NCBI GenBank assembly: GCA_963752035.1
Contig: CAVVWZ010000027.1
Span: 1-44,313 of the forward strand
DNA length: 44,313 bases
DNA from: an uncultured delta proteobacterium
GTDB taxonomy: Bacteria; Desulfobacterota; WTBG01
Direction of reading: 5' to 3'
The translations under genes and the position numbers were made by a program. Shown here piece by piece: positions 14,467 through 39,357 of the stretch. The notes beneath the pieces were generated by a model. That model was not told where the DNA came from and made no database searches. It was given only the letters and a program-made list of their open reading frames with translations. Each line of letters begins with the position of its first letter. The stretch's first letter is position 1.

Positions 14467-14938
14467 ATGAAAAACAAAAGTTTTCTTGTTCTCATAGCTT
14501 TTTTTATTGCAAGTACTTGTTTCACAGGTTTTTTATATGCTGCTGAGGAAGTTGTCCCCGCTTCAGAAGAACTTGAGGTGGAACAGCTAAAGATCGCCAA
14601 TAAGATGGTTCGAATTACTGAAAGAGAAGGTGCATTTCCACAAACCGTTATTTCTGAGTGCTGGTACTACCGTTGTCTGGATTAACAATTCGAGATCAAC
14701 CCTGGAGGTACAGTTTCTTGATAAAAAGGTTACTCTTGCCTGCGGTTCTCCGGTAAACTTTTTTATTAATACAGACGGCGCCTATGAATCCGGAAAGATT
14801 CCCTATGGCGGTACAGCCAGCCTTTGTTTTCTCGAGAAGGGTACTTATGATTACATGGTCAGGGTTAATAGAACTTTTTACAAACCAGCATTTGGAGGTA
14901 TGGCCAAAGATCATCGGGGGAGAATTGATATAAGGTAA
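14467..14938 (+). CDS. Second exported cupredoxin-like protein, paralogue of 13767-14201 (frameshift ~14650)
   Basis: AAGGAGG RBS, signal peptide, shared DKKVTLACGSPVNFF and GGTASLCF. Confidence 0.7.
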
Positions 14939-15018
14939 TATCCCTAATAATGAAAATTGTCACCCTGAACAAAAAAGTGGTTCAGAGCAAAGAATTTAAA
15001 GCTATTTAATAATTAATT

Positions 15019-15049
15019 GACCCCTCAACATATCTGTTGGGGGGTTTTT
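15019..15049 (+). terminator. Intrinsic terminator
   Basis: GACCCCTCAACA-TATC-TGTTGGGGGTT then T-tract, between convergent genes. Confidence 0.7.
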
Positions 15050-15078
15050 GTATCTAATGAGAAATACGGGATCATTAG

Positions 15079-16251
15079 TTAGTGTGTTTCTTTTGAGGCA
15101 ACCAGTGCATACCTGGTGAAGAGGGGACCTGCAATTTCATAAAAGACGGTTGTGGCTATGATGGTTGAGAAAATCGTATTGCCCACACCGGGGAAGCGTT
15201 CCTTGACAATGAGGGCCAATCCTATGGCGACACCTGCCTGAGGTAACAGAGCCCAGCCAAGATACTTCCGTATCTTGGGTTCTGCATTTGAGAGATATCC
15301 CCCCAGGAATCCACCACAAACTTTGCCCAGAGATCTCAGGACTATGAAGAGTACTACACTGAGTGCTACCCCTTGCAGAAGGGCAAACTCAAGGTTTGCT
15401 CCTGCCAGAATAAAGAAAAGCAGGTAGAGAGGGGCATCAACAGTTTTGATAAGATCGAAAAATTTAAAGGATGTGGGGCTGAGGTTAACCAGAACTGCTC
15501 CAAGGACGATGTTGGCAAGAAGCAGAGAGAGGTGAAAATAGAGGGCCAGACCGGTGTTGAGCAAAAGGAAACCGAGCAGGTAAATGAGCAGATCTGATTT
15601 TACCTTAATGTGCCGTGCAAAAAAATGGCAGATGAAGGCAAGAACACCACCAAGTATAACAGCTAAAACAATTTCTCTAACAAAGGGAAAAAGCACTTTG
15701 AACAGGGAAGGGCTGGTGTCGGCCCCCAGCAGCGCATCCTGGGCAAGGGCAAAGGAGAGGGCAAAAACAATAAGACACCAGGCATCATCGATTGCCACCA
15801 CCCCCAGCAGGGTGTTGGTAAAATTCCCACGGGCTCGATACTCCCGAATTACCATTAAAGTGGCTGCAGGTGCGGTTGCTGAGGATATTGCCCCGAAGAG
15901 GATAGCAACAGGTAAAGGCTGTGCAAGGAGAAGATGTAAGCCTGCAGTTACGAGAAACCAGGGTAGAAGGGCAGCAGTGAGAGAAATGTAGATGACTGGT
16001 TTGCCGATTTCTTTAAAAGATCTGAAGAGGAAGCTCTCGCCCAGACTGAATGCAATGATGCCCAGGGCAATATTGGAAATGAGCCCGGAGGAAGCTATCA
16101 GCTGGTCATTGACGAGGTTAAAAAGCGAAGGTCCAAGAAGAATACCCACGATGATAAATGCAGTCACCGTGGGTAGCTTTATCTTTTGGATTAACCGTTC
16201 AGCCAGAAGGCCCACCAGGAGTATGAACCCCAGATTGAGAATGGTGTTCAC
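15079..16251 (-). CDS. Cation:proton antiporter (CPA2/Na+/H+ exchanger family)
   Basis: About 12 TM segments, SATAPAAT, VAIDD, PQAGVAIGLA. Confidence 0.9.
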   Translation of the reverse strand: MNTILNLGFILLVGLLAERLIQKIKLPTVTAFIIVGILLGPSLFNLVNDQLIASSGLISNIALGIIAFSLGESFLFRSFKEIGKPVIYISLTAALLPWFLVTAGLHLLLAQPLPVAILFGAISSATAPAATLMVIREYRARGNFTNTLLGVVAIDDAWCLIVFALSFALAQDALLGADTSPSLFKVLFPFVREIVLAVILGGVLAFICHFFARHIKVKSDLLIYLLGFLLLNTGLALYFHLSLLLANIVLGAVLVNLSPTSFKFFDLIKTVDAPLYLLFFILAGANLEFALLQGVALSVVLFIVLRSLGKVCGGFLGGYLSNAEPKIRKYLGWALLPQAGVAIGLALIVKERFPGVGNTIFSTIIATTVFYEIAGPLFTRYALVASKETH

Positions 16252-16727
16252 GTGATTACTCCCCTTTCCCGCAAAACTACATAAATAATGTCAAAGAGGG
16301 TAATGACCCCTACCAGGGTGTCATTGTTAAGCACGGGTAATCCCTGTATGTTGTGGAGTTGCATGAGAGAGGAGGCCTCAGAAATGGTTTTATCTTCTTC
16401 AATGGGGATGAAATTAGTTTCCATAATGTCGGCTACCAGGGTTAAGTGTGCCCACTCCGGAGTAACCGTAACATCAAGGATATCCATGTCTTCCTCTTCC
16501 ACTTTGAGTGAGGGGCTTGCACGCAGCATACGGGTGAGCTGTTTGCTGTGGGGTTTGAAGATGGCCAGTACGCTTTCTATGTTGACCGTTCCAAGCATGT
16601 GGTTGTCATCATCAACAACGGGGAAACGGTGAAAGTGATACTCACGGAAGAGCTTCATCAACTCAACTATGTCGAGAGATGGTTTAACCGTTATGACATC
16701 TGTGCGCATAACATCTTTTACCAGCAT
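16248..16727 (-). CDS. CBS-domain pair protein
   Basis: MLVKDVMRTDVITV, FPVVDD, LPVLNNDTLVGVIT; overlaps the antiporter start. Confidence 0.88.
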   Translation of the reverse strand: MLVKDVMRTDVITVKPSLDIVELMKLFREYHFHRFPVVDDDNHMLGTVNIESVLAIFKPHSKQLTRMLRASPSLKVEEEDMDILDVTVTPEWAHLTLVADIMETNFIPIEEDKTISEASSLMQLHNIQGLPVLNNDTLVGVITLFDIIYVVLRERGVIT

Positions 16728-16806
16728 AGGTGTTACACTCTCGTTTGATATTGGTGTTGATATAGCCAGCGGAAGGTGTCCGGTGTGCCGTTGGGAAATA
16801 CAGCTG

Positions 16807-18227
16807 TTAATCGTCATCCACAGTACAGCAGGGTTTTTCGATAGACTCCACGGACTCTGTTTCCATATAGTTGTTAAAATCTCTCAAAAAGGTAGCGGCA
16901 TTGATGCCATCAACCACACGGTGGTCCATGGAAAGAGTAACTTTCATTATTTTGGTGGGAACAACAGCGCCATCTTTTATAACCGGTGTATCTTTGATGG
17001 TACTGACTGCCATTATTGCAGTCTGGGGAGGATAGATGATAGCCGAAAAATCAGTCACCCCTAACATACCGAGGTTACTGATGGTAAAGGTACCATCGGT
17101 GAAATCATCCGGGGAGAATTTACCTGCTTCTGCTTTTTCTCTGAGACGTTTTACCCCGCTTGAAATTTCATCTATGGTCAGCTTGTCACAGTTCTTGAGA
17201 ACGGGAATGATTAGCCCTTCAGGAAGTCCTATGACAATACCCATGTTAACCTCTTTTTTCAGGATCAAGCCCTGTTCAGGATAGACAGCATTGAGATAGG
17301 GGTAGTTTTTGAGGGTTGTTGCTACTGCCTTGATGATGACATCGTTGATGGTGATCTTGTTTTTGGAGTCTTGTTTCTTTTGATTGAGTTTTGCAAGCTG
17401 GGTGATGACATTAGTCATGGCAATTTCGTAGCTTACATAGAAGTGAGGAATATGTTGTTTGCTGTAGCTCACCGTTGCCGCGATTGCCTTTCTCATTTTG
17501 GAAAGGCTGGTAATCTCTTCAGATGGCCCCAGTTCTCTCTGCACCAGCGGAAGTGTTCCCTCCTTAACTGCAGTATCTTCTTTGTAATTCCGAACATCTT
17601 TGAGGGTAATCATGGCCCCCGCACCGGTTCCCTTCAGCTGAGAAAGATCTATTCCACGTTGTTGCGCAAAACTTCGTGCTGCGGGTGATGCATTAACGTC
17701 TCCCTTGACCGTGGTGGCACCGGTTTTGCGGGTACGATTTTTAGTTTGGGAGCTACCGTGGTATCCTTAACGGGTGGTTTTTGACTTACTTCGACCTTGG
17801 ATGGTTCTTCGACCTTGGATGGTTCTTCGACCTTGGATGGTTCTTCAACCTTGGATGGTTCTTCAACCTTGGATGGTTCTTCAACCTTGGATGGTTCTTC
17901 GACCTTGGATGGTTCTTCAACCTTGGATGGTTCTTCAACCTTGGATGGTTTTTCAACCAGGGGTTCATCTTGCGGGATGACTTTATCCATATCTCCCCCG
18001 ATAACAGCAATTGGAGTTCCTACCGGTACTTTTTCTCCTTCCTGAACAAGGATCTGTGAGAGTACACCTGAAACAAAAGCTTCTACCTCCAGTACTGCCT
18101 TATCAGTTTCCACTTCAAAGAGGGTTTCCCCCTGCTGAACGTAATCCCCTTCAGCTTTATACCATTTGATCAGGGTCCCCTCCTCCATGGTGTCACTTAA
18201 TTTGGGCATGCTGATTTCTTCTGGCAT
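16807..18227 (-). CDS. pdhC: Pyruvate dehydrogenase E2 dihydrolipoamide acetyltransferase (frameshift ~17705)
   Basis: Lipoyl domain EVETDKA; other frame gives subunit-binding ASPAARSFAQQRGIDL and catalytic TISNLG, DHRVVDG. Confidence 0.92.
17790..17958. repeat. 18-bp tandem repeat, 9 units, encoding the VEEPSK linker in E2
   Basis: CCTTGGATGGTT recurs every 18 bp from 17795 to 17939. Confidence 0.97.
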
Positions 18228-18241
18228 AATGTGATTCCTTT

Positions 18242-19213
18242 CTAAAGGATATGTATTGCAGCCTGGATTATATCGTCTGGCTGGGGAATAGCAGCACGCT
18301 CAAGGTTTTTAGCATAGGGCATGGGTGTATCTTCCCCCGCGACTCGTACAATGGGTGCGTCAAGGGCCGTAAATGCGTGTTCGTATATCTGGGAACTGAT
18401 TTCTGCTCCAACACCACCGGTTTTCCAATCTTCCTCGACGATGATAACCCGGTTTGTTTTTTTGACAGAGGCAACAATGGTCTCTCTATCCAGGGGATTA
18501 AGGGATCTCAGGTCGATGAGATCTGCCTCTATTCCTTCCTTTTCCAACTGCTGAGCTGCTTCCAGGGCGGTAAGTACCATGTTGGAGTAGGCTATGATAG
18601 TGATGTCCTGCCCCTTCCGTCTAAGGGCCGCTTTCCCAATGGGAATTGTATAGTCCTCAGCGGGAACCTCGCCTTTGGTGTTGTAAAGGTGTTCGTGTTC
18701 GAGGAACATAATGGGGTTGTCGTCTCTGATTGATTCTTTTAAGAGTCCTTTTGCATCCTCGGGGGTTGATGGCATAACCACCTTTAATCCAGGGCAGTGG
18801 AGAAAATAGGATTCCAGGCTTTGGGAATGCTGAGCTCCTAACTGATTTCCGCCGCCACCGGGAGCCCTTATAACAAGTGGAACTTTTGCCTGACCGCCAA
18901 ACATGTAACGGATCTTGGCCGCGTGGTTGACGATCTGGTCCATGGCTAAAAGGGCAAAATTAACCGTCATGAGCTCGGCTATGGGACGGAGTCCCACCAT
19001 GGCAGCTCCAATGGCAGCTCCAACAATAAGTCCCTCGGCAATGGGGGTATCGATTACACGCTTCTCCCCAAATTCGGCAAATAAACCATCCGTAATCTTA
19101 AATGCACCGCCGTAAAACCCCACATCCTCACCCATTATAAAAATGTTGGGGTCACGTTGCATCTCTTCCCGCATGGCATCATTTAAGGCTTCACGATAGC
19201 TAATCAATGGCAT
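18242..19213 (-). CDS. pdhB: Pyruvate dehydrogenase E1 beta subunit
   Basis: GEDVGFYGG, DTPIAE, GAQHSQ, DLRSLNPLD, PMPYA. Confidence 0.93.
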   Translation of the reverse strand: MPLISYREALNDAMREEMQRDPNIFIMGEDVGFYGGAFKITDGLFAEFGEKRVIDTPIAEGLIVGAAIGAAMVGLRPIAELMTVNFALLAMDQIVNHAAKIRYMFGGQAKVPLVIRAPGGGGNQLGAQHSQSLESYFLHCPGLKVVMPSTPEDAKGLLKESIRDDNPIMFLEHEHLYNTKGEVPAEDYTIPIGKAALRRKGQDITIIAYSNMVLTALEAAQQLEKEGIEADLIDLRSLNPLDRETIVASVKKTNRVIIVEEDWKTGGVGAEISSQIYEHAFTALDAPIVRVAGEDTPMPYAKNLERAAIPQPDDIIQAAIHIL

Positions 19214-19232
19214 AATACATCTTCTCCCGCAT

Positions 19233-19652
19233 TTAGCCTAACTTGCTCAAAACGTGACATTCGGTAGTTAATGTCCTGTTTACCGGACAGCGCTCTGCAA
19301 TCTCAAGGATGCGCTCCTTCTGATCCTGGGTAAGGTCTCCCTTGAGATAAATAGTTTTGGTGATCTGATCCAGTTTCCCTTCTTCGGTTATGCACTCCTC
19401 ACAATCGGTGGCATGAATCTTTTCATGATTGAGCTTCACCTGGACACTCTCCAGGGGCCACTCTTTACGCCGGGCGTACATCATAATGGTCATTGATGTA
19501 CATCCCCCTAAGGCAGTAAGGAGTAGATCGTAGGGGTCAGGGCCTTTTCCGTCTCCTCCTACATCTTTTGCTTCATCAATGATGATGGTGTGCTGATCAG
19601 TTTTTGCCTCCTGCTGGTAATTTCTGACAAATTTAACCACAACCTCTTTCAT
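19233..19652 (-). CDS. OsmC/Ohr-superfamily protein
   Basis: DEAKDVGGDGKGPDPYDLLLTALGGCTSMT and AERCPVNRTL keep both catalytic Cys; extra CEEC. Confidence 0.9.
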   Translation of the reverse strand: MKEVVVKFVRNYQQEAKTDQHTIIIDEAKDVGGDGKGPDPYDLLLTALGGCTSMTIMMYARRKEWPLESVQVKLNHEKIHATDCEECITEEGKLDQITKTIYLKGDLTQDQKERILEIAERCPVNRTLTTECHVLSKLG

Positions 19653-19673
19653 AGTAGACTCCCTGCATTCATG

Positions 19674-20648
19674 TTAATCGGCGTAGATGTCTGTCATGAG
19701 TTCTTTCAATTCGGGCCAGGAACTTTTGTCAGCAAATTCAACAGCCTTATCCACTGTTTTATTTACCGCGTCCTGAAGTTCCTTCAGATCATCCGGTGAT
19801 ATGACAGCCTTGTCTCTTAACTGCTTGGCAAATTTAATTATGGGATCTCTGTCTTTCCAGATTTTCTCTTCCCGTTTTGTTCGATAGTCATCAGGGTCTG
19901 ACATGGAATGTCCGCGATACCTGTAGGTAACTGCTTCTATGAAAGATGGTCCATCACCATCACGGGCCCGTTCTACAGCCCTGCTGGTTGCTTCCCGCAC
20001 TTCCAGAACGTCCATGCCGTCTACCCGTTCACTGGGGATGCCGTATGCCTTAATCCGCTTGTAAAGTTCTTTGGAAGGAGCAACCCTGTCCAGAGAAGTG
20101 CCAATAGCATAAAAGTTGTTTTCGCAGATAAAGATGATGGGAAGTTTCCAGGCGGCGGCAACATTGAGAGATTCATGGAACGCCCCGGCATTGGTTGCAC
20201 CGTCACCAAAGAAGGTGGCAGCAACAGCAGTATCTTCAGTGTACTGTATTGCCATGGCCACACCGACCGTGATGGGCAATCCCCCTGCAACGATGGCGTA
20301 ACCACCTAAAAATCGAAGCTGGTTGTCGTAAAGGTGCATAGAGCCACCTTTACCCTTGCTTATTCCGGAGGCGCGGCCAAACAGCTCGGCCATAACGACA
20401 GTGGGGTCAGCCCCTTTAGCGATACAGTGCCCATGGTCACGGTAGGAGCTGATGACATAATCGCGCTCATTGAGTGCGGATATAGCTCCCACTGCAACTG
20501 CCTCTTCTCCAATGTAGAGATGGGAAAATCCGGTGATTTTACCCCGAACATACATCTCTGAAGCTTTTTCCTCAAATCGCCGGATGAGAAACATCGTTTT
20601 GTAAAGATCTACCAGCTCATCATTGGAAATAGTAGATGGGTGGGCCAT
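19674..20648 (-). CDS. pdhA: Pyruvate dehydrogenase E1 alpha subunit
   Basis: GFSHLYIGEEA, GKGGSMH, TPP motif GDGA...ENN, YRYRGHSMSDP. Confidence 0.95.
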   Translation of the reverse strand: MAHPSTISNDELVDLYKTMFLIRRFEEKASEMYVRGKITGFSHLYIGEEAVAVGAISALNERDYVISSYRDHGHCIAKGADPTVVMAELFGRASGISKGKGGSMHLYDNQLRFLGGYAIVAGGLPITVGVAMAIQYTEDTAVAATFFGDGATNAGAFHESLNVAAAWKLPIIFICENNFYAIGTSLDRVAPSKELYKRIKAYGIPSERVDGMDVLEVREATSRAVERARDGDGPSFIEAVTYRYRGHSMSDPDDYRTKREEKIWKDRDPIIKFAKQLRDKAVISPDDLKELQDAVNKTVDKAVEFADKSSWPELKELMTDIYAD

Positions 20649-20735
20649 AGGTTTATCCTCTTATCGTACCTGAAGTGCTTACAGATTATGCTGTTAACAG
20701 TTTAAAAAGGCTGAGATATATGAGTTTACCGGCAG

Positions 20736-20839
20736 GTGCTGAGAAAGCCCCGCCTTGTATGCGGGGATGAATCAGCACAAAGTAGAAATAATCAAATTTA
20801 ATTTCCGGGATGCCCCGCGCTGTGCGCGGGGAGCATCAC
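20736..20839 (+). mobile_element. Non-autonomous IS200/IS605-like remnant (two end hairpins, no ORF)
   Basis: GTGCTGA..AAGCCCCGC-CTTGTAT-GCGGGG..TCAGCAC and GATGCCCCGCGC-TGT-GCGCGGGGAGCATCAC, ending in TCAC. Confidence 0.55.
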
Positions 20840-20903
20840 ATTTACCACATGTGGCCATACGTGACACAAAAAACCATGAAACATGTTGCTTGCTATTGCC
20901 CGC

Positions 20904-20952
20904 CACCTCAACCCTCTCCCCTGAGGGGAGAGGGAAGGGTGAGGGGGATTCT
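20904..20952. repeat. CCCTCTCCCC-n3-GGGGAGAGGG palindromic repeat, copy 1
   Basis: Related copies at 32549-32575 and 36510-36565. Confidence 0.8.
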
Positions 20953-20995
20953 TTTTTATAGGACGGTGTTAAAATAAGTTGTTTAACCCTGTTTT

Positions 20996-21281
20996 TCAGC
21001 CTTTGAGTTGTCGCGGCTTGCAAAGAAGGCTTCTGCTTACTGATACCCTACCGCAGGCATCACAGTAGTATTGAGTATCCTCAACTTTGGGTTTGCAGAG
21101 ATGTATACGGATTGGTTGAACCGGTTCCGCAGTATTCACAGGTGTAGGCTTTCTCCACCTTGCCGGGATTACAGAGATGTTTTTTTTGGCTCGTGGTTTT
21201 ACCGCAGGTTCTACAGGAGTAGACTTTTTTGGCTACCGCTTTTTTTGTGCTCTTCTTTTTAGCAGTCTTTTTTGTTGCCAT
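20996..21281 (-). CDS. Small Lys-rich protein with three CxxC...LCxP Zn-finger-like repeats (frameshift ~21105)
   Basis: CRTCG..HLCNP, CEYCG..HLCKP, CDACG..LLCKP after removing one base; GGGAGG RBS. Confidence 0.72.
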
Positions 21282-21358
21282 GATTAAACCTCCCTGTTTG
21301 TGATATTGTATTTACCAGCTGCTCTTTGTTGAACAATAAAATAAGTGGTTATTGCTTG

Positions 21359-24300
21359 TCAAGTTTTGCTTACTCCCGGGCCTTTGAGATAGTTCATAGA
21401 TTTCTGAACGGTAATGTGTACGACCGGGATGACAACTAGCGTAAGGATGGTTGAAAGTAGCATACCACCGATAACCACCATTCCCATGGGGCTCCTGCTT
21501 TCAGAACCTGCACCGGTTGAAAATGCGATAGGGAGCATCCCGAAAATTGTCGATATGGCAGTCATAAGCACGGGTCTGAACCGGAGGCGCGATGCCTGTA
21601 CAACACTTTCTATTATATCATGGCCTTCTTCCCGCAACTGATTGGCAAATTCAACAATCAGAATGCCGTTTTTTGTAGCAAGGCCGACAAGCATGACCAG
21701 GCCAATTTGGCTGTATAAATTGAGACTCATGCCTGTAAGATAGAGTGCACCAAAGGCACCGGTGAGTCCAAGGGGAACGGTTATCAGTATGGTGAGGGGA
21801 TCAGTAAAGCTCTCAAACTGGGCGGCCAATGCCAGAAAAATAACAATCAGAGCCAGGTTAAAGGCAAAAATGAGAGAATATCCCGATTCCTTATATTCAC
21901 GGGATTGTCCCGATACGTCAGTTTGGTAACCTCCCTCTACCGGAAGTGTGTTTGCTGCAATTGCTTCAACCCGTTTAAGGACCTGGCCCAGGGTAACGCC
22001 CGGCAACAGTGAGGCTGTAATGGTAACTGCTCTCCTCCTGTCGTAGTGGTTAAGTTCACGGGGTGCTGTGCGTTCACTGACCGTCACCAGGTTAGAAAGC
22101 TGTATCAGCTCTTCCTGGTCGCCCCGCAAATAGAGGGCCTCAAGCTGGTCAGGAAGGGTCCGGTTGTTTTTCTCAAGTTGCACAATGACCTTGTACTGCT
22201 CACCTGCTTCTTCGAAGGTTGCGAAATCTCTTCCTCCGAGTTGAACCTGGAGTGTAGTGGCGATGTTGCGTACCGAAATACCCAGATCATTTGCCTTATT
22301 GCGGTCGATTTCAACCAAAAGTTCCGGTTTATTTAGTTTGAGGTCACTGTTAAGATTGATAACACCCCGGATTTTTTTTGCCTGGGTCATAATTTCTTCT
22401 GTTACCGAATAGAGGTCATCGTAATCGTTGCCTTTTATAATAAAGGAAATAGGTTGGTCAAGGGAAGTCCTCCCAAGGGATGGTGGATTAACAGGAAAAG
22501 CAAGCACACCTGGCACCGACAAAATGAGGGGGAAAATGTCTTTTACTATCTCCTGTTGCTTGCGTTTGCGTTCTTCCAGGGGTTTTAGGGTGGCAAAGAG
22601 CAAACCTCGGCTTACCACTCCGGGTCCACCGATACCAAGCCCAACAACAGAGATAGTACGTTCTACTTCCGGTTGGGACAACATGATTTGTTCAACCTGT
22701 TTAACATAAGAAAGGGTATAGTCCAGTGTGCTTCCCTCCGGTGCCAGGATAATTGTGAGAATCACTGCCCGGTCCTCAACGGGAAGAAACTCACTGGGAA
22801 GAACCCTGAATAGTCCAAGACCAGCAACTGAGACCACAGCTGCCAGGACAATGACGAGAAAAGTCTTTTTTACTGCTCTAGTGAGCAGTTTTGAGTAGAC
22901 ATTTTCAACCTTGTTAAAGCCGTTTTCAAGGAAATTAAAGAAACGTGAATTACTTGCCTGTTTTTCCCTTCCCAGAACTAGTGAACAGAGCATGGGGGTA
23001 AGGGTGAGGGCAAAGAATGTTGAAAAAGAGACGGCGATGGATAAGGTGATGCCAAACTCACGAAAAAGCCGACCGGTGTTACCGGTTATAAAGGCGAGAG
23101 GGACAAAAACAGCAATGAGAACTACAGTTGTGCTGAGTACCGCAAAGCTTACCCGCTTCATACCCTTGAGGGCAGCTGTCTTGGGATCTTCACCCTCCTC
23201 AATACCCCGGTAAATAGTTTCCAGGACAACAATTGAATCATCAACCACCAACCCGATCGCCAGCGTGAGACCGAGGATAGTGAGGATGTTGATCGAAAAG
23301 TCCAGAAAATACATGGCAGTAAAGGTTGCAATTAAAGATGCGGGTATGGTTATAGTGGGTATAAAGGTGGCTCGAAGGGTTCGTAAGAAGAAGAAAATAA
23401 CCAGTGTAACCAGGATTGCCGAGAGAAAGAGGGCATCCCGGACCTCAATGATAGCGCGTTCGATAAAAATTGTTGAATTATAGCCAATAACTGCTTCCAG
23501 TCCATCGGGTAGACCAGGTCGAATATCTTGCAATTCTTCTCTAACAAGCCGTGCCACTTCGAGTGCATTTGACTTGGACTGTTTAATGATCCCGACACCA
23601 ACACAGGTAGTACCGTTATATCGTATAAGTTTCCGGTCATCCTCGGGTCCGTACTCCACCCGTGCCACTTCAGCAATACGAATAGGCACATTGTTGTTGG
23701 TGCGGATAACCAGATTTGCAATCGCCTCCGGCGTGTTCAACTCACCTTCCATAAATACCGAAAATTCCCGTGAGGCACCTTCAATTCTTCCCGAGGGGAG
23801 GTTGACGCTCTTTTCGGAAAGGGCAGAAGACACATCAGTTACCGTGAGGTGGTAGGCCGCAAGTTTGTAGGTGTCAAGCCAGACACGGATGGACTTTCTT
23901 TTTTCACCGCCAATGATTACGGATCCCACTCCGGAAAGAGTCTGAAGGCGGTCTTTAAAGAATCTATCAGCAATATCGCTAAGTTCCAGCATTGAATAGT
24001 CTTCACCAAAGAGCACGATCCAGATAAAAGGACTGGCATCGGCATCCTGTTTGGCGATTACCGGTTCGTCAATGTCATCGGGAAGCTTGTTGCGCACCCG
24101 AAGCACCCGGTCCCTCACATCCTGTGCTGCAGCATCGATGGTACGTTCAAGCTGAAACTCGATGGTGATGAGACTCACCTGTTCCCGGTTTACCGAGACG
24201 ATAGATTTTAACCCCTCAATCCCGCTCAGCTCATCTTCCAGAACCTGACTGACTTCAACTTCCAATACGCGGGCACTGGCACCGGTGTAAACGGTGGTAA

Positions 24301-28229: not shown

Positions 28230-28249
28230 TGAAAGAAGAGTTCAATCTA

Positions 28250-28741
28250 TTACTTGGGAGTTGTGAAAAGCCAGTCCTTTTCTTCCTGGGTGCGATGGCA
28301 GTCGATACAGCCCCTGCACTTTACCTGATTTGGCAACTGTGCCATCAGGTGCATACTTGGCCCAGAACCAGTCCCCTGCTTCGGGATTGTACCCCTCAAC
28401 CTTGTACATAGGGGTAATGGCCATTAAAGTCTTTTGATCTTTTCCATAATTTTCCTTTACAATAATGGCACCTTGAGGCATGGGCTTTCCTTCCCGGGCT
28501 GCCTTGAGGGCGAGACCGTTGGCATACAGTTTCAGAAAGGCTCCGTGGGGGCTCTTCCCGGGATAGATTCCCGGATAGCCGGGCCAGGTTCCCCATCCGA
28601 GATAGGGGTTGCATTGGGTTATGTGAGTCCAGACTTTCCCCGGATCGGCAGGAATCCACATCTTCTCCTGCCTCAGAAACTAAGGCTGTGAAACCGAGTA
28701 GAATATACTAAGGTACATACAATGACCAGTTGCTTTTTCAT
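28250..28741 (-). CDS. Cytochrome P460-family protein (frameshifts near both ends)
   Basis: PHGAFLKLYAN, GAIIVKENY, MYKVEGYNPEAGDWFWAKY; corrected C-terminus GCIDCH...DWLF. Confidence 0.78.
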
Positions 28742-28814
28742 CACCGTTCTCCCTTCTTAATTGTGTATAAGAAAATAGTCGGGTTTTGAGAATAAAAACC
28801 TACTAATAAAGTAA

Positions 28815-28842
28815 AGTATAATGACTCCTATTGATTTGTCAA
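28815..28842 (-). promoter_or_regulatory. Candidate sigma70 promoter for the P460-like gene
   Basis: Minus strand TTGACA-16 nt-TATACT. Confidence 0.5.
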
Positions 28843-28876
28843 GCAAGAAAATAAAGGTATACAGTAAAAAAGATCG

Positions 28877-29494
28877 TCAGCCATCTTTGTAGATATTATT
28901 CTGGTAAATGTAGTCCTGTACTGTCTGTGGAACCATCCCCTCGATGGATTGATTGTTGAGTACACGCATCCTGATTTCAGTGGATGAGATAGAGAGGCTG
29001 GGTTCTTCTAAAATGGTAATGAAGGGCAAATAATCATCCGGGATTCTTTCTTCTACTGTTTCCTTTTGGTAGCCGGGTCGTACTGCCGCAATGAAGTGGC
29101 AGAGCCCAGGATAGGTTTTTGCCTTATCCCAGTTAATGATGGTGAGCAGGGCGTCTAAACCCGTAATGAAGTAAATCTGCCACTCCTTGCCATACTGTTT
29201 TTGAAGTGCCTTGATGGTATCTCCGGCGTAACAGGGACAAGTCTGCTCCATCTCAATGCGTGAGGATTCGAAGTAGGGGTTATCTTTGACTGCCAAATCA
29301 ACCATTGCAAAACGGTGTTCAGCAGGACTTATTTCATCGACCGACTTATGGGGTGGACAGTAGGCGGTTACGAAAATGACCTTGAGCAAATCCATTTCTT
29401 TTCGTGCCACCTCAGCTGCCTTCAGGTGACCGAGGTGAATGGGATCAAATGTCCCTCCCATGATAGCAATTTTAAAAGGGTGTTTCTGTGTCAT
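28877..29494 (-). CDS. nadD: Nicotinate-nucleotide adenylyltransferase
   Basis: GGTFDPIHLGH, PPHK, FITGLDA, ISSTEIR. Confidence 0.93.
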   Translation of the reverse strand: MTQKHPFKIAIMGGTFDPIHLGHLKAAEVARKEMDLLKVIFVTAYCPPHKSVDEISPAEHRFAMVDLAVKDNPYFESSRIEMEQTCPCYAGDTIKALQKQYGKEWQIYFITGLDALLTIINWDKAKTYPGLCHFIAAVRPGYQKETVEERIPDDYLPFITILEEPSLSISSTEIRMRVLNNQSIEGMVPQTVQDYIYQNNIYKDG

Positions 29495-29504
29495 GTCCAC
29501 AAAT

Positions 29505-29560
29505 TAGGGGTCAAACCTACACATTTGACACTAGTGTCAAAAGTGTAGGTTTGACCCCTA
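29505..29560. repeat. 56-bp near-perfect palindrome
   Basis: 28-bp arms, one mismatch, no spacer: TAGGGGTCAAACCTACACATTTGACACT|AGTGTCAAAAGTGTAGGTTTGACCCCTA. Confidence 0.95.
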
Positions 29561-29567
29561 TGCTGTT

Positions 29568-30164
29568 TCAGTCAGATTCCCAGACGGTACACACCTTACA
29601 AACGAGGTCAGGACCGGGTTTGAGGGTTTTTTTACCCGGTACCCAGCCTGCCGGTATTGCTTCAGTCCCCTTTGATTCCCGTACACATTGGAATGCTTCA
29701 ATCTGCCGCAGCAGTTCCTCCACATTACGACCCACGGGTGCATTGAGCACTTCAATGGCCTGAATTATTCCGTCAGGATCAATAATGAATTGTCCCCTGT
29801 TGTGTAATCCTGCGTCAGGGTTATAAACCTCGTAGGTTGTGCCCAGTTTTCCCCCGGGATCAGAGAGCATGGGGTAGGGGATTCCACCCTTGACCATCTT
29901 TGACAATTCCTGTTCATGCCAGGTTTTATGGGCGAAAACCGTATCGACACTGATAGCAAGGATTTCTGCCCCAAGTTTTTGGATCTTTGCGTGCTGGGCG
30001 GCAACTGCCGTCAACTCTGTTGGTCATACAAAGGTGAAATCAGCCGGGTAAAAATAAAGGATGACCCATTTACCTGCATAGTCAGCAAGTTTAATCTGTT
30101 TGAATGTGTTTTGGTGAAATGCCTGCAATTCAAAGTCAGGTGCCTTTTCTCCAACTTTAAGCAT
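29568..30164 (-). CDS. ahpC: Selenocysteine-containing AhpC/Prx1-type peroxiredoxin
   Basis: ATG 30164 reads [11 protein letters not shown]...[15 protein letters not shown] in frame with the 29568-30014 ORF; TGA (30024-30026) is codon 47, the peroxidatic position. Confidence 0.9.
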
Positions 30165-30202
30165 TGTATTTCCTCCATCAATTAATTAGGTGCTACCATC
30201 CA

Positions 30203-30886
30203 TCACACTTGTTTGAACTGATCTTTTCCGGCACCGCAGACCGGACAGGTCCAGCTGTCGGGAATCTCTTCAAAGGGCGTCCCGGGGGCTATTCCTCCGT
30301 CGGGGTCACCCTTTTCCTGTTCGTAAATGTATCCACAGATGGCGCACTGGTAGCCTGGTGTTGAAGAATCCTTTTTATCCTCTTCTCCACGGAAGGTCGG
30401 CGCAGTCTTGGGTGTTGTGCCTTTCTTGACCTGATGATAGTAGGCATAGGTCATTGGTTCTCCTTCCTTAAGCACTTCTGAATCCACCACTTCTCCAACA
30501 AACAGGGTGTGGGTGCCAACCTCCATTTGATGCTTTACCTTTGCTTCCAGGACTGCCAGGGAATTATCGATTATAAGTGGTGCTCCCGTAGAGCCTGTTT
30601 TGTAGTTTACCTTTTCAAATTTGTTTATGTCTCTTCCTGATTTGAAACCAAATTGGCCAATAAGGGTAAGCGGGGTTTCCTGAGAGAGGATGGAGACGGC
30701 AAACACACCGCTTTCTTTGATGAATTCGTTGGTGAGGTTTTGAGTGTTAATGCCAATGGCAAGGGCAGGGGGTTCACCAGTTACCTGGATGAGGGCATTG
30801 GCTATCTGCCCGTTTATCTTGTCCCCCTTTGTTGATGTTATAACATACAGACCATAACTTATTTTGTAGAGAGCTGTAGGATCCAT
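30203..30886 (-). CDS. hrb: High-molecular-weight rubredoxin (flavin reductase-rubredoxin fusion)
   Basis: [29 protein letters not shown], then CAICGY...WTCPVCGA. Confidence 0.88.
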
Positions 30887-30966
30887 TTCTTCCTCCTTGT
30901 GGAAATATGAGATTAGTAAAAAAGAAAACCACAGAGACACAGAGAAAATCTCGATGGTTTAGTCGT

Positions 30967-32503
30967 TTATAAGGTTTGGGTAAATGCAGCTATGTGGGAC
31001 AGCTTCAACTGTGAAAGAGCAATATGGGGCGCATAGATCACTTCATCAGCAGCCCACAATACCGTTCCGGTTTGACTGTTTTCAATTCCGGTGATGTTGT
31101 TAAAAACAGAGTGCATGTTATCGTTTATTCTTACAGTGTTCGGTTTAAGGGGCTCAGTCAGCTTGCCGTCTCTTATCAGGTAGGAATCTCCAACGATGGT
31201 TGCCGTGAAATCAGCGGCTTTAATTCCATTGATGGGATAAGTATACCAGATTCGTCCAATATATACACCATTTTCAACCTTGCTGAGTAATGCTTCCAAT
31301 GGCAGTCCATTTTCTCCCTCGATGATTACGTTGGTGGGTGAAATGGAAGGGATGGTATCATGATTCCTCCCCCCTCCCTGTCCAAACCTGAAACCGTTTC
31401 GCGGTGCAATTGCTCTTTGCCGGGTGTGGGGATCAACTCCTAACTTTTCCTGTCCCTTTTCGTCGTGAAGGATTCTTTTGGTCTCATAATCATTAGAGAG
31501 CAGTCCAGATAATATACCGGAGGTGATAAGTTCTGTTTTCCCGGTGGGTAATCCCTCGCAGGTGATGCCTTTACTTGCAGCTAACCCTTTTTTACACCCA
31601 TTGTCGTAGACAGATACTATCTCTGAAGTGATTTTCTTGCCCAGCTTACCCTGGAAGGTAGAGTTGCCGGCATAGAAACTATCGAGGCGAAGAGAAGGGA
31701 TGAGAACGTTATTAACAATGTCGGCTACTGCTTGAGGTGCAAGAACAACCGGATAGGAACCACTGTCTATCTCTGTTCCACTCAGAGCCTGCAGGGCACT
31801 TTTTACCGCCATTGATCCTGCAGTGCCGTCGAAGTCATCAAGATGGGTTCCCACTGAGCATCCCGATCCTTTGCTGTTGGTTTTTTCAATCATTGCCGTG
31901 AGGGAAGAAAAGAGTAAGGTTGATGTGTCTTCCTGGACTGATTTAAGGATGGGATGAGGCAAGGGCTATCTCCTCTTGAAGAATGGTAACATCTCCTCCA
32001 AGGATGAGTCCCAGCTCATTGAGGGAATATTTTTGAATGAGGGGAGAGTGATCCCACTCCTCCAGTGCCGCATGAATGGCTTTCCAGCCTAATTTTACAA
32101 GATCTTCATCAGTGAGGGACAACAGGCTTTCGTCATGATAATTCCAGAGGCTTCTTTTCTCCCGGGATGGTTCAGGAAGTCCATTGAAATCGGGGTCATA
32201 TACGGCACCCTGTTTTGCCTTGATCAAGGCCGAATCCAGGGCATCCATGGAGAAAGAACCTGTTTCCTGTCCAAAACCAACTTTTATGGTGTCTCCCTCT
32301 TTGAAAGCGACCCTTAGACCTATACCCTGGTTTTGGGTTGATTTTGGTTCCTCTAAACCATTACAGGGAAGGTGTGAGGTATAGTTGATTCTGCTGGTTA
32401 GGATTCCATTTACTGCAGCAAACAGCTCTACTTCATGGATCTCGTCATTCCGGGAGAGGTATGCTAGACCTTCAGTCAGTGTGTTTATTATCTGGGAGTC
32501 CAC
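30967..32503 (-). CDS. TldD/PmbA-family protein, PmbA/TldE-like (frameshift ~31945)
   Basis: Two ORFs join into about 510 aa; GSYPVVLAPQAV, SPTNVII; follows tldD. Confidence 0.75.
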
Positions 32504-32548
32504 TGAATAATTCCTTTTTTACCGTTTACTTTGTATAGAAAGCTTCTT

Positions 32549-32745
32549 CTCCCTCTCCCCACAGGGGAGAGGGAGGTTTGGGATTTTGGTTATTTGGAGT
32601 TGTCCTTCGACTTGGCTCAGGATGGTGAGCTGGCCGAACCATTTGCGACTGTGTATGAGATTTGTTATTTCCTTCGGTTACTTTGCGTTCTTTGCGTGAC
32701 TCTGCGGTGGAAATATGATTTCTGACTTCTGTCTCCTGGAATCCT
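32549..32745. repeat. Mosaic of several short repeat types between tldD and pmbA
   Basis: CTCCCTCTCCCC hairpin; TTTGG motifs; CCTTCGAC..GCTCAGG..GAGC..CGAACC; CTTTGCG nonamers; TTCTGAC heptamers. Confidence 0.65.
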
Positions 32746-32751
32746 ATTTGT

Positions 32752-34321
32752 CTAACCCGATGCTCCCGTCAAGCGGGCCCTACTTCTCAGTGTCGGGCTG
32801 CCATTACCCAGTTTTTTAACTTGCATGGGCTGCCCCTTGCCGCAGTTGGGTATGGGGTAAATTTTGAGGTCGTTACCAACGGCATCAACCTGCATGAGAA
32901 AATCACGGCTGTCGGCAGTGATCCCTCCATCGCGAAAGAGCTGACCGATTCTACCGTTTTTTATTTCATAAACCTTTCTGGAGGTGATACGAAAATTCTC
33001 TCTTGATTCGGCGATAGAGGGAATTCGGTGACCGAACAAATAGTAGCCGTGATCGACCTCGCTTACAATATCATTAACCTCACGGGTTCCATTTTCAAAA
33101 ACAGTGGTTGACATGCGAATCAGGGGGACCACCGATGCAGCAGTACTCTTATAGGATCCGTTGGGCTCAGCCTGCAGAATAGCGGCGGTTTGTCTGCTGT
33201 TCATGAATTCATTAAAGATACCCTGCTTTATGTGGTAGACTTTTTTCCCAAGGGTACCTTCGTGATCATAGGTGTAGTGACCGAAGCCGGGAAGGGATGG
33301 ATCGGAATAGGTTGACAACAACGGTGAAGCAACCTGTTTCCCCTGCTGATTGTTCTGTATAGTATTAAAGAGCCAGGAGCGGCCTGCATATGAGGTCTCC
33401 ATTTTAAGGGCCCGGTCCAGTTCATTGGGATGACCTATAATTTCATGTGCCAGCTAATGCATTATAGTGAGGATCTGTTACTACAGTTACTTCACCGTCC
33501 GTTGATTGCAGGGCAGGGGCATTGGCAAGTTCTACCGTTTCCTGTGCCAGCTCCCGGGAAAATGATCTTAAATCCTTGTTGTAGATATAGGGACCCTGAC
33601 AGCCCTGCTCTATGACTTCCCAACCCCGCTGGTGCCCAATGTAGTCATAGTGTTCCTGGACTCCTTCCTTACCTGAAGCAACAATATAGGCTATGCCGTA
33701 AGTAATAGCAAAGGTTTGATCAATTGCCGTCCCTTCACTGGAGGTGAAAAACTCTCTTGAAAGCATGGTGGAGGCACCGATTTGATTGTACAGTATAGTG
33801 CTCCCCATGGATTTAATTTCTTGAGAAATATCTTTGATGTGGGTTGAGATCTGCTGGGGGGGAATGCTTGCAGGGTCCCGTTGGAATTCGGCCGGTAGTA
33901 TTTCACGATGTATTTCTATTGGTGCCAGTTCCATATTCCACAGGCTTTGCCCCAGGTGGGGAAATTGTTCTTTCGTTTTTGTCTTCCACTCTGCATTAGA
34001 GAGGGCACGTTGGTAAGCGTGATTGAGGCACTTTTCAATAGTTGCTTCCAAGTGGTTAAGGCTTTCTGCTCCCAGTGTAAGTCCGTAATAACCAGGGGAG
34101 ATGCATTTTTTACCTGCCAGCACCCTTACGCCACATGAAAGCCCGTAGTCCATTCCGCAGTATTTTTCATCACCATTTTCGCAAAAAGCCCCGCGATCTT
34201 CAGAGACTTCAAATCGTATGTCCGTATAGTGTATGGAGGGATTATTTTTGATAAATCGTTCCTGGAGGGACTCGATCTTATCTTTTACAGTATCGATAAT
34301 TTCTATGGTAATCTGTTTCAT
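32752..34321 (-). CDS. tldD: TldD-like metalloprotease (frameshift ~33452)
   Basis: Removing one base restores HEIIGHPNELDR (HExxxH); YDHEG, PLIRMS, CGKGQPMQ. Confidence 0.85.
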
Positions 34322-34332
34322 AGGAGTCCTTT

Positions 34333-34510
34333 AACCCGGATTTTGCAGTAGGTATCGTAGCGAGGTGCAGAAAAGCACAGCGAAACGAGCAGTTGGAGCG
34401 ATTTTGTAACGATGGCATATTTATAAATATGTTGAGGAGCAAAATCGTGAAACAAGTGTTGCAGCAAGGATTTTCAAGCCGCAGTAGATGGCTACTGCAA
34501 ATTCTGGGTT
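34333..34510. mobile_element. MITE-like element with 19-bp terminal inverted repeats
   Basis: AACCCGGATTTTGCAGTAG / CTACTGCAAATTCTGGGTT (17/19 complementary), internal nested hairpins, no credible ORF. Confidence 0.65.
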
Positions 34511-34666
34511 TAACATCCAAAAAACACAACCTATTAGATAGAGGGATTTCACAGGATACGGGAAATCGTATTGTCTAACAGGCTGGCATGAAAATTCAAT
34601 GCACAATTAACAGTCGGTTAACGATGCAGTATTCTTTCCTGAGATTGTATAATAATTAGATGAAAG

Positions 34667-34985
34667 TTACAGAGCACTATCTAGCATTGCCTTTGAGTTT
34701 ATCTTTACTCTGTGCCCCTATGATTTTTTCCACCTCATTTCCATTTTTAAACAGAATAAGGGTAGGAATACTCCTGACGCCGAACTGGGCGGGTGTATTT
34801 TGGTTGTCATCAATATTGATCTTCACAATTTTAGCCTTGCCGTCAAATTCCTGGGCAAGTTCCTCCAAAACAGGGGCGATCATTTTACAGGGACCACACC
34901 AGGGTGCCCAGAAATCAACCAGCACTGGTATAGGGGAATCGGTAACTTCTGCTTTAAAACTGGCATCATTAATTTCAACTGTCAT
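34667..34985 (-). CDS. trxA: Thioredoxin (probable 1-nt insertion near the C-terminus)
   Basis: [19 protein letters not shown]; corrected end LKAMLDSAL. Confidence 0.93.
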
Positions 34986-35021
34986 GTATAAACCTCCTGT
35001 AATACTTTTATGAAATAAATT

Positions 35022-36474
35022 TTAATCAACAAGTTTTACTTCTGCAACGGCAGAGGCCATTTCAACAATGGGAAGTTCAAAGGTTTCGTCACCAAAAAGA
35101 TCATCAATGAAAGATTGCGGGGCACTGCGGTAGTTTAATCTAGCTTCGATGGTGTACCCCAATATGCCGATTATGGGAACCAGGAAACTGAACTGTTCTG
35201 TGGCTGATCCCTTTGGTGGAATACGATTATCGGAGAGAATGTGGTCGGCCTTTGCAACATTGACCGTGTGATTTCCATCCTTGTCGGCCAGTTTGATGGA
35301 AAAGGAGTGTGCCTGGGGGTCGAGGTTGCCATTTTGGTCAACCTTACCTGAGTGCACAATGACTCTTCCCAGGGCATCCTTTATCTGGAGTTCAAGCCAC
35401 ATTTCACGAACTTCACTTAATCCTGTAGGTAAATAGTGCCCGGCACCTACATTGTTAACCTTTATCTGGATTGTTGCCTGTTGCCAAATCAGAGGTAGGG
35501 AAGGAGCTGAAATTTCTATGGTTGCACAGTTTTGAAGACGTTCTATTGCCATTTGGGAGTTTTGTTCCCCCCCTTCATAAAGAGCGGGGAGAGCTGTATT
35601 GGCCCCTACATGATAGTGGGTGTAAACATGATCCCGTTCTTTCCCGCCAATAGCGGAAACACCGGGATTGTCAGGCCGTTCGGTTGAACCGGTAGCGGGT
35701 ATCCCCGGACGCTGCCTCATGTGGCAGTCTTCACAATAGACAGTGGTTGCCGGGTCTCCCGTGTTGTAGGGGCCCTCGCGCCATTCAGTGTAAGTTCTTT
35801 CAATCGGTAATCCGTTTAAGGTGTGGGTTACGTCATGACACATGCCGCACATCTCTGATTTGGTGTGGAGTTCAGAGAAGGATGTTCCGTGGTAAGGTGA
35901 AACCGCATCGTCCCGGGGGCCCCACTTGATTTTCTTATCATCTCCTGCTGATTCAATACCCACAGTGTAAGGGGCATTACCAATTCCGGCAGAGCTTTTA
36001 ACGCTGTGACAGAAGTCACAAAAGATGCCATTTTTGAGGGGAGCAAGTTCCTGGGGGTCATAATCACCCTCAGTTGTTTCGATCACTCTTGAGAGATGTC
36101 CCAGAGGTGTGTGGCATCGTACGCAACTCCGGGCTTCTTCAAGTTCACCTTCCGTATCTGCTTCAGAGAGGACCAGTTTTGTAACCTTCTGGAAAATAGG
36201 ATCGTTCAATGCATTTGCATGAACCCCGCCTTGCCACTGTTCAAAGATTGCATTGTGGCAGCCACCGCAGATTGTTGGTTGTTCGAGCTGATCAACAGCA
36301 AGATCTCCTGGCAGGCTGATTGTGCTATCAGGAATCATATTTGCTGGCCTTTCCCAGGAAGGGTTAATCCAGGTGGGAGACCAGCTCTCCGGATCCAGTG
36401 TTTGTGCTGACTGCCGGTTGAATCACCAGCAGGAGGCAGATAAGTTTTAGTGCATTACGTAAGCTATTGATCAT
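35022..36474 (-). CDS. Pentahaem c-type cytochrome, c554-like domain (frameshift ~36405 after the signal peptide)
   Basis: CGGCH, CVRCH, CDFCH, CGMCH, CEDCH; IERTYTEW; GAGHYLPT. Confidence 0.88.
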
Positions 36475-36509
36475 AATAATATCCAATTGAAAAGTACTGT
36501 TTGTTATTA

Positions 36510-36565
36510 CCCCTCACCTCATTTTTCTCCTCTCAGGGGAGAGGGACAGGGTGAGGGGGATTCTT
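36510..36565. repeat. CCCTCACC...GGGGAGAGGG..GGGTGAGGGG palindromic repeat, copy 3
   Basis: Shares AGGGTGAGGGGGATTCTT with the copy at 20904-20952. Confidence 0.8.
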
Positions 36566-36571
36566 ATGTGC

Positions 36572-37751: not shown

Positions 37752-37824
37752 GTAATTATCTCCTTATCTTCCCCTAATAGCCTTAGTAGTAATTCCCTCA
37801 CTCAGCAATAACAGTGTGATGAAA

Positions 37825-38315: not shown

Positions 38316-38330
38316 GAACATATCCCCATA

Positions 38331-38595: not shown

Positions 38596-38597
38596 TG

Positions 38598-39170: not shown

Positions 39171-39180
39171 ATAATCTTTC

Positions 39181-39294
39181 CTATTCTTCGACCAGTTTGA
39201 ATTTGGCTTTGCCAGCGCCACATACGGGACATTTTTCAGGTGGATTTTCTCCCACATGGACATAACCACATACAGTACATCTCCATTTCTTCAT
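39181..39294 (-). CDS. 37-aa rubredoxin-like protein (not in the ORF track)
   Basis: AAAGGAG RBS; [37 protein letters not shown]. Confidence 0.88.
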
Positions 39295-39357
39295 CTGCTT
39301 TCTCCTTTCATGTGAAGTTTGACTTACTACCAATTAAGGTTGGGACACTTAATAGAA

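Follow-up and report, generated by a model that had tools for sequence, protein, structure and literature searches.

A four-cysteine OsmC-like protein encoded inside a pyruvate dehydrogenase operon of an uncultured delta proteobacterium

Described lipoyl-dependent peroxidases and the operon compared with them

Lipoylated proteins return the thiol peroxidases Ohr and OsmC to their reduced state (PMC8945050; PMC5384416), and both peroxidases require a conserved arginine and a conserved glutamate, which are missing from a separate 'Ohr-like' group (PMC5384416). Here we describe a pyruvate dehydrogenase (PDH) operon of an uncultured delta proteobacterium in which the gene for an OsmC-like protein stands between those for the E1 alpha and E1 beta subunits. 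The window, i.e. the whole stretch of DNA that was analysed, comprises 44,313 nt and is contig C27 (CAVVWZ010000027.1) of a metagenome-assembled genome (MAG) of 1.93 Mb in 102 contigs that is 68.9% complete. An initial annotation, made from the sequence alone, had read the operon as a possible, undescribed pyruvate-driven lipoyl peroxidase in which OsmC may replace or bypass dihydrolipoyl dehydrogenase (E3, or Lpd, encoded by lpdA). Our preferred reading, to which we give about an even chance, is that the operon encodes an ordinary PDH, served by a shared E3 whose gene lies elsewhere, with a lipoyl-coupled OsmC-like redox or detoxification branch as part of the same operon, and not a complex without E3. 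A literature search, with subscription journals outside its scope, found no published account of an OsmC gene within a PDH operon.

The window protein has the fold of the Ohr/OsmC thiol peroxidases, such as Ohr of Xylella fastidiosa and OsmC of E. coli, and shares with them two catalytic cysteines, of which one is on the long helix and the other in a C-P-V motif. It differs from them in that curated models do not match it, the conserved arginine is missing, some orthologues have selenocysteine (Sec) and the gene lies inside a PDH operon; a lipoylated E2, the reductant of the Ohr/OsmC enzymes, is only proposed as the reductant here. The two cysteines are 71 rather than ∼60 residues apart because a conserved hairpin with an extra CxxC motif has been added. 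In sequence the protein is closest to the C-terminal domains of fusions between alpha/beta hydrolases and OsmC, the OsmC-esterases (PDB 9wo1; residues 273-396 of 9wo1_A, E = 1.2e-39). These share all four cysteines including the CXXC, and genomic homologues show 47-59% identity. These domains are, however, fused to a hydrolase, whereas the window protein is a stand-alone protein of 139 aa. Jensen et al. (2016) termed the OsmC domain's function in OsmC-esterases enigmatic (PMC5113044).

Two described systems resemble the proposed electron path more than the protein itself. AhpD/AhpC of M. tuberculosis draw on a lipoyl-E2 whose reduction comes either from E1-dependent decarboxylation of ketoacids, with CoA, or from E3 and NADH (PMC12995895). 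In this DlaT-AhpD-AhpC system, working with Lpd or E1, the lipoyl arm of the PDH E2 feeds a peroxidase, which is the very path proposed in the initial annotation, so that the path itself is not new. The M. tuberculosis acceptor, however, is AhpD and then the peroxiredoxin AhpC, which have unrelated folds and genes outside the E1/E2 operon, whereas here a single OsmC-like protein would serve. The second system is the hydrogenosomal OsmC of Trichomonas vaginalis with its L and H proteins, which is 'Ohr-like', lacks the canonical arginine and glutamate and has, in this anaerobe, a lipoyl carrier and Lpd as partners; its activity was not reproduced by a second laboratory (PMC5384416). The gene cluster for GcvH, an OsmC-like protein and LpdA that we found in one relative (G019, below) is the same kind of set. 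We group with it the cluster of Hyphomicrobium denitrificans in which a GcvH-like protein has been proposed as the electron donor of OsmC (preprint, which cites the Trichomonas system as well). In the Trichomonas type of system GcvH serves as the carrier and NADH, not an E1/E2 pair, as the source of the electrons.

On the minus strand, from 20648 down to 16807, the window encodes pdhA, the OsmC-like gene, pdhB and E2, as established from the list of open reading frames (ORFs), Pfam and NCBIfam. This upheld the order pdhA-osmC-pdhB-pdhC of the initial annotation, which had missed, however, that E2 is frameshifted. The genes are as follows.

19674..20648, minus strand: pdhA, pyruvate dehydrogenase E1 alpha, 324 aa (Pfam E1_dh 315.8 bits; NCBIfam TIGR03182 451.8 bits, cut-off 393.85)
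19233..19652, minus strand: OsmC-like protein, 139 aa, with conserved C51, C84, C87 and C122 (Pfam OsmC 63.9 bits, cut-off 27.5)
18242..19213, minus strand: pdhB, E1 beta, 323 aa (Transket_pyr 163.6 and Transketolase_C 152.7 bits; NF006667 470.6 bits, cut-off 321)
17649..18227, minus strand: first frame of E2, with the lipoyl domain (ETDKA lipoyl-lysine motif), a linker of PSKVEE repeats and an out-of-frame tail at the end (Biotin_lipoyl 74.9 bits; lipoyl-domain alignment)
16807..17733, minus strand (ORF listed as 16807-17613): second frame of E2, with the peripheral-subunit-binding domain and the acyltransferase catalytic domain (2-oxoacid_dh 264.1 bits; TIGR01349 269.7 bits, model positions 136-431)

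Both E1 subunits exceed the curated PDH cut-offs (TIGR03182, NF006667). The gaps between the four genes measure 21, 19 and 14 nt, close to the ∼15-20 nt given before, and each of the three contains a purine-rich run that, read by eye, resembles a ribosome-binding site. A scan revealed no terminator-like site on the minus strand between the operon genes, the sole such site being a weak stem of 5 pairs within the 3' end of E2. Promoter-like sites were at chance level (9, against 8.4 in shuffles), and an Rfam scan of 14900-21500 gave two matches, both far under the gathering scores. Contigs from an RNA library (run X16) match 17958-18306 and 18365-18615 with ∼96% identity; since such libraries can contain DNA, this cover was not counted as proof of transcription. 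No weight attaches to the stretches of the operon left uncovered by runs X2, X4 and X16.

The OsmC-like protein and the conservation of its setting

The AlphaFold2 (AF2) model of the protein (pLDDT 93.7) has the OsmC/Ohr fold. Its best Foldseek matches, 2opl_B at the top (E 9.6e-9, TMq 0.79) followed by 1vla, 2onf and 2pn2, are uncharacterised 'Ohr-like' structures, and many Ohr/OsmC entries are matched besides. C51 lies within helix 40-62 of the model and C122 immediately before helix 123-129, and by alignment the residue 10 positions before C51 is Tyr41, followed by Asp42. Both catalytic cysteines are kept, as the initial annotation had stated, and all four cysteines are conserved across 81 homologues.

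C51: Cys in 78, TGA codon in 3 of the 81 homologues
C84: Cys in 80 of 81
C87: Cys in 80 of 81
C122: Cys in all 81

D26, E27, P38, P40, Y41 and D42 are invariant too, but this was imposed by the search patterns. The ORF of 139 aa is flanked by stops and has no hydrolase domain, and on the tree it groups with other stand-alone forms; a hydrolase domain is present in 115 of the best 120 of 839 longer homologues. A canonical OsmC or Ohr identity was considered and rejected, because the protein matches no curated model and lacks the conserved arginine. As judged from the alignments, it is a member of an uncharacterised four-cysteine branch of the OsmC family, with the extra CxxC as its mark.

The position of C51 is occupied by a TGA codon in the PDH-operon copies of two relatives (G005 and G003), and the three TGA codons among the 81 domain homologues include those of a Solirubrobacteraceae (actinobacterial) and a Rokubacteria record. 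The selB gene was found above cut-off in all five genomes tested, G003 and G005 included. Each of the two Sec-type orthologues has a predicted hairpin 3' of the TGA (-14.9 and -17.1 kcal/mol), but since the corresponding stretch of the Cys-type orthologues folds in a similar way (-11.2 to -14.9 kcal/mol), comparison of this candidate selenocysteine insertion sequence (SECIS) is not decisive. That cysteine and selenocysteine replace one another at the peroxidatic position we regard as good evidence that C51 takes part in redox catalysis. Elsewhere in the window a peroxiredoxin gene (AhpC-TSA and 1-cysPrx_C; 29568-30167, minus strand) has an in-frame TGA at the peroxidatic position (FTFV-U-PTE); it likely encodes a selenocysteine enzyme, of which the ORF finder gives only the part after the TGA.

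We examined the distribution of the arrangement in two ways. The class survey covered 41 genomes assigned to families f1 to f6, and the wide scan covered one genome per species for 185,579 species, which gave 360 relatives, of which the best 80 loci were kept. PDH-OsmC synteny is present in 13 of the 41 genomes of the class, and 11 of the best 80 loci have PDH genes in the same order (8 complete, 3 cut by contig ends), so that the insertion is not peculiar to this genome. All 11 come from MAGs labelled Thermodesulfobacteriota or 'delta proteobacterium', or from untyped uncultured-bacterium MAGs, and the order E1 alpha-OsmC-E1 beta-E2 was seen in each of the six regions of relatives that were fetched. 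Orthologues of the OsmC-like protein, with 61-87% identity over their full length, were identified in eight of the ten other f1 genomes and in four of the eight f2 genomes; in two copies truncated by contig ends, identity over the part present is 80% (G003) and 63% (G017). No orthologue was found in the six genomes of families f3, f4 and f5, and in f6 there were only weak matches, in 2 of 16 genomes. Only 12 of 42 genomes, each belonging to f1 or f2, have an E1 alpha orthologue that is at least 60% identical, and the remaining E1 alpha matches are at most 47% identical. In f2 the operon continues into lipA and a LipB/LplA-type gene, while the f1 operons, including that of the window, are without lipA or lipB.

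When 81 OsmC domains were placed on a quick maximum-likelihood tree, with the three TGA codons read as Cys, the 12 PDH-linked rows formed one group (SH-aLRT 84). Because these copies form a single group, the conserved order counts as one event and not as many; it looks as though a stand-alone OsmC-family gene was inserted once between pdhA and pdhB in an ancestor shared by two Thermodesulfobacteriota families, and the arrangement has since been retained in this one group of anaerobic bacteria from sediments. Among the best 80 loci, 68 of the 69 non-syntenic ones have no 2-oxoacid dehydrogenase gene nearby. The remaining locus, L081, where a hydrolase-OsmC gene of an alphaproteobacterium lies ∼600 nt from a 2-oxoacid dehydrogenase operon, was not counted, since a single case out of 69 is, roughly estimated, about the number expected by chance.

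Other neighbourhoods within the family also join these proteins to lipoate genes. In an Ignavibacteria MAG (L080:4513-7353) and a Zixibacteria MAG (L111:4515-7343) a gene for a TrxR-like flavoprotein of 307 aa is followed by a stand-alone OsmC homologue and lipA, with gene ends that overlap or nearly touch. On the tree these two loci fall among the protein's nearest stand-alone relatives (the second sister group, after L045), and as they share synteny with one another they were counted as a single event. The relative G019, which also has the PDH-OsmC operon, holds on one strand of a different region (L159, G019:C1:2839000-2846500) genes for GcvH, DGC, DGC, an OsmC-like protein (PF02566, 37.7 bits), LpdA, LipA and LplA; a DsbD_2 membrane protein is encoded upstream of this cluster. 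From its gene content the cluster looks like a complete NADH-driven lipoyl/OsmC module. Genomic evidence independent of the PDH operon supports a lipoyl link of the four-cysteine OsmC branch.

The orthologue from the benzene-fermenting ORM2a has been detected as protein in one proteome, where three unique peptides gave 25.7% coverage and its abundance rank was 458 (PMC13101534, Table S11). This shows that the OsmC orthologue is expressed there; it does not imply co-expression with the complex.

The reading frame of E2 and the surroundings of the operon

From its ATG at 18227 to its stop at 16807, E2 measures 1421 nt, which is no multiple of three. All three domains are present; the lipoyl domain and linker are read in a different frame from the subunit-binding and catalytic domains. 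Two features bear on this.

17690..17733, minus strand: zone of the E2 frameshift, with 7 extra bases behind 17723 in relatives
17789..17958, no strand assigned: 18-nt tandem repeat of 9.4 copies that encodes the PSKVEE linker between the E2 domains (repeat analysis)

Seven extra letters behind 17723, which restore the frame, are found in one X1 and one X2 contig, from two different studies. These contigs are 93-98% identical to the window (13 differing letters in 175 nt for X1, 4 in 214 nt for X2), and E2 orthologues are uninterrupted in five relatives (416-437 aa). Since 1421 + 7 is a multiple of three, E2 is intact in near-identical populations, and the break in the window is either an assembly error or a strain-specific deletion of 7 bases in an A-rich run. 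The length of the linker varies between strains, as one X1 contig skips 144 nt of the repeat between 17807 and 17952; another public contig has 3-nt deletions. Two PmbA/TldD-type genes of the window (30967-32503 and 32752-34321) are each represented by two adjacent or overlapping ORFs (331 + 186 aa and 216 + 292 aa). These splits may be further assembly frameshifts, which is relevant to judging that in E2.

The immediate neighbours of the operon are as follows.

20649..21358, minus strand: region of 710 nt upstream of pdhA, without an identified regulatory element
16248..16817, minus strand: CBS-pair protein, 189 aa (CBS 98.5 bits), whose start overlaps the E2 stop by 11 nt; same order in G001
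15079..16251, minus strand: Na+/H+ exchanger family protein, 390 aa (110.6 bits), whose start overlaps the end of the CBS gene; same order in G001

A Na+/H+ exchanger gene goes with the operon in family f1, lying downstream of the CBS-pair gene here and in G001, and in G008 (L020) a Na_H_Exchanger-TrkA_N gene and a PilZ gene are located upstream of the operon. Further off, the window carries unusually many genes for defence against oxygen and reactive oxygen species (1-2332 and 28242-39915), namely a ferritin, a hybrid-cluster protein, a peroxiredoxin, a flavodiiron protein, two rubrerythrins, a flavin reductase-rubredoxin fusion and an FMN reductase. This richness in oxygen defence of the anaerobe type fits a role of the operon in oxidative stress but is no proof of it. 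Several multihaem cytochrome genes were also noted in the window. In another contig of the genome an orphan E1 alpha/E1 beta pair (L158, G000:C49:2195-4191), 42% and 50% identical to the pair in the window, lies amid flagellar genes without an adjoining E2 or E3.

The location of E3 and the proposed role of the OsmC-like protein

The initial annotation had noted that no lpdA is present in the operon or window, and this was borne out: a full-length Lpd query gave no tblastn match in the window at E ≤ 1e-3, none of the 26 matches to TIGR01350 in the genome falls on contig C27, and Pfam revealed no class-I disulfide reductase among the 41 window ORFs scanned. Nor is lpdA present in any of the 11 syntenic loci. 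For the genome as a whole the lack of E3 was not borne out. Although none of the 26 TIGR01350 matches is above cut-off, one of them is the N-terminus of an lpdA at the end of contig C24, comprising 88 residues with an open 3' end (84.3 bits over model positions 1-63) and the redox-disulfide motif CLNLGCIPTK; the remainder is outside the 69%-complete assembly. Across all 88 aa this fragment is 70% identical to the N-terminus of the Lpd of 464 aa in G001 and G007, which represent the nearest genus and score 447.7 and 451.3 bits against the cut-off of 408.8. Genes for LplA/LipB and GcvH were not found in the assembled 69% of the genome, which encodes two alpha subunits of ferredoxin-type 2-oxoacid oxidoreductases.

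We surveyed lpdA across the 13 genomes that carry an orthologue of the operon OsmC, that of the window included, with the following results.

G001, G002, G003, G008, G009 and G019: lpdA above cut-off (six of the 12 other operon-bearing genomes, the closed genome included)
Genome of the window: N-terminal fragment of lpdA only
G021: 329-bit match, an Lpd-STAS fusion
G017 and G005: weak matches only
G004 (94% complete), G006 (91%) and G023 (84%): matched neither by TIGR01350 (at 1e-20) nor by Pyr_redox_dim

Since the last three are all fragmented MAGs, we regard the absence of lpdA from them as unproven. G004 holds additional E1 alpha paralogues of the type whose operons in sister genomes include Lpd, so that its lpdA is probably just unassembled. 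Where present, lpdA belongs to units other than the PDH-OsmC operon: it stands alone in G001 and G007, while in G002 and G008 a second E2 is followed by a lipoyl-Lpd fusion and then LplA, and Lpd ORFs of similar length (∼600-640 aa) occur in G003, G009 and G010. E3 is missing from the operon and, as the fragment on contig C24 suggests, is probably encoded at another place in the genome.

In the scheme that we prefer, the OsmC-like protein is probably a lipoyl-coupled thiol/selenol redox enzyme, for which we infer a peroxidase role. A hydroperoxide or another oxidant would oxidise the C51/C122 pair, and dihydrolipoyl groups on the presumably co-expressed E2 would re-reduce it. The E2 arms would in turn be reduced by turnover of E1 and E2 with pyruvate and CoA or, alternatively, by NADH via the dihydrolipoyl dehydrogenase whose gene fragment lies on another contig. 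The gene arrangement, its conservation, the Cys/Sec exchange, the occurrence of lpdA and the lipoate genes near relatives are shown by the sequences, while which path the electrons take and which oxidant is reduced are the parts of this scheme that we infer. Of the pyruvate-driven lipoyl peroxidase first suggested, the coupling itself is favoured by the synteny, the lipoyl-gene neighbourhoods and the exchange of TGA and Cys at C51, whereas the absence of E3, the canonical OsmC identity and the novelty of the mechanism are not borne out. A complex prediction for two copies of the OsmC-like protein with the E2 lipoyl domain, with alignments as input, scored 0.00 and 0.00 and is no evidence either way.

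Several observations weigh against a lipoyl-coupled peroxidase of the PDH. In the NCBIfam scan at E ≤ 1e-5 no curated Ohr/OsmC model matched the protein, the only matches being NF041052, 'OsmC-related (seleno)protein' (53.8 bits, cut-off 95), and TIGR03549 (42.4 bits, cut-off 900), and the 77-row alignment contains no invariant or nearly invariant arginine. The nearest characterised relative, the CXXC-containing OsmC domain of EstRM, showed no peroxidase activity with dithiothreitol (DTT) and either H2O2 or cumene hydroperoxide (PMC5113044). These results do not agree with a reading of the protein as a canonical OsmC peroxidase. No fusion to a lipoyl, E1, E2 or Lpd domain was seen among the best 120 of 839 longer homologues. 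Table S11 for the strictly anoxic benzene-degrading culture, which lists the ORM2a OsmC orthologue, contains no locus tags for ORM2a pdhA, pdhB, E2 or lpd. To these points are added the frameshift of E2 in the assembly and the single origin of the conserved order.

The alternative that fares best is a true E3 bypass, in which no dihydrolipoyl dehydrogenase takes part and re-oxidation of the lipoyl arm depends wholly on the OsmC-like protein, with peroxide as the oxidant during exposure to O2 or, under anoxia, a disulfide or selenosulfide acceptor; we regard it as unlikely. In its fullest form, for which our expectation is equally low, E1 alpha-OsmC-E1 beta-E2(-LipA-LipB) would be, in these strict anaerobes, a self-contained E3-independent module in which the Cys/Sec OsmC-like protein acts as a dedicated dihydrolipoyl oxidase and passes electrons to peroxides or, via the CxxC, to another disulfide acceptor; if true, this would decouple pyruvate oxidation from NAD+. 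None of the 11 syntenic loci has lpdA even though f2 operons include their own lipA and lipB, and in relatives lpdA sits in other units (with the second E2, lipoyl-Lpd fusion and LplA, or in the GcvH/OsmC-like/Lpd cluster); these two facts keep a bypass in consideration, but nothing in the genome data demands one. The lack of a TIGR01350 or Pyr_redox_dim match in three genomes and the detection of the OsmC protein in a strictly anaerobic culture speak in the same direction. However, these three are fragmented MAGs, with the lpdA of G004 probably unassembled, the genome of the window has an lpdA fragment, lpdA scores above cut-off in half of the other genomes with the operon, the closed one among them, and a PDH dependent on peroxide could not sustain flux in anoxia. 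Moreover, several complexes sharing one unlinked E3 is the usual situation in bacteria.

Somewhat less probable again is a role in the care of the lipoyl cofactor, either the repair or protection of an arm that is over-oxidised, nitrosated or in a mixed disulfide, or help to LipA-dependent assembly. The OsmC-family genes adjoin lipA in the f2 PDH operons, in L080 and L111 and in G019 (OsmC-like, lpdA, lipA, lplA), the CxxC and the two further cysteines would suit thiol-disulfide exchange, and no peroxidase activity was detected in the esterase-fused relative. Against this, the literature examined held no experimental precedent, the many alpha/beta-hydrolase fusions (115 of the best 120 of 839) have no evident link to lipoate assembly, and the f1 operons, including that of the window, lack lipA and lipB. 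Least likely of all is that there is no coupling and that a stress gene, served by another reductant such as a TrxR-like flavoprotein or thioredoxin, landed in the operon and was passively inherited, which the single insertion allows and with which the scarcity of 2-oxoacid dehydrogenase genes near the non-syntenic loci (68 of 69, the exception L081 being about chance) and the TrxR-like gene directly before the OsmC gene in L080 and L111 agree, but against which stand the retention of the same spot across two families while OsmC fell to 61% and E1 alpha to 60% identity, the tight, operon-like spacing and the separate lipoate-related neighbourhoods in the family.

Lipoyl-dependent peroxide reduction by Ohr and OsmC is known from in-vitro work, and to our knowledge genomic evidence that wires it to one particular 2-oxoacid dehydrogenase is scarce. 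Under the preferred reading, a normal PDH with an OsmC-like branch, such wiring would be visible in an operon of an uncultivated anaerobic lineage, including the record of the benzene-fermenting ORM2a. Because the wiring in the operon involves an uncharacterised branch of the family, the operon offers a defined set of partners (E1, lipoyl-E2 and the OsmC-like protein) with which the four-cysteine branch could be assayed. A successful assay would reveal what the OsmC domain does in the OsmC-esterases, the same domain that is fused to hundreds of alpha/beta hydrolases, and would show how PDH is used under oxidative stress by anaerobes that otherwise rely on ferredoxin-dependent pyruvate oxidation.

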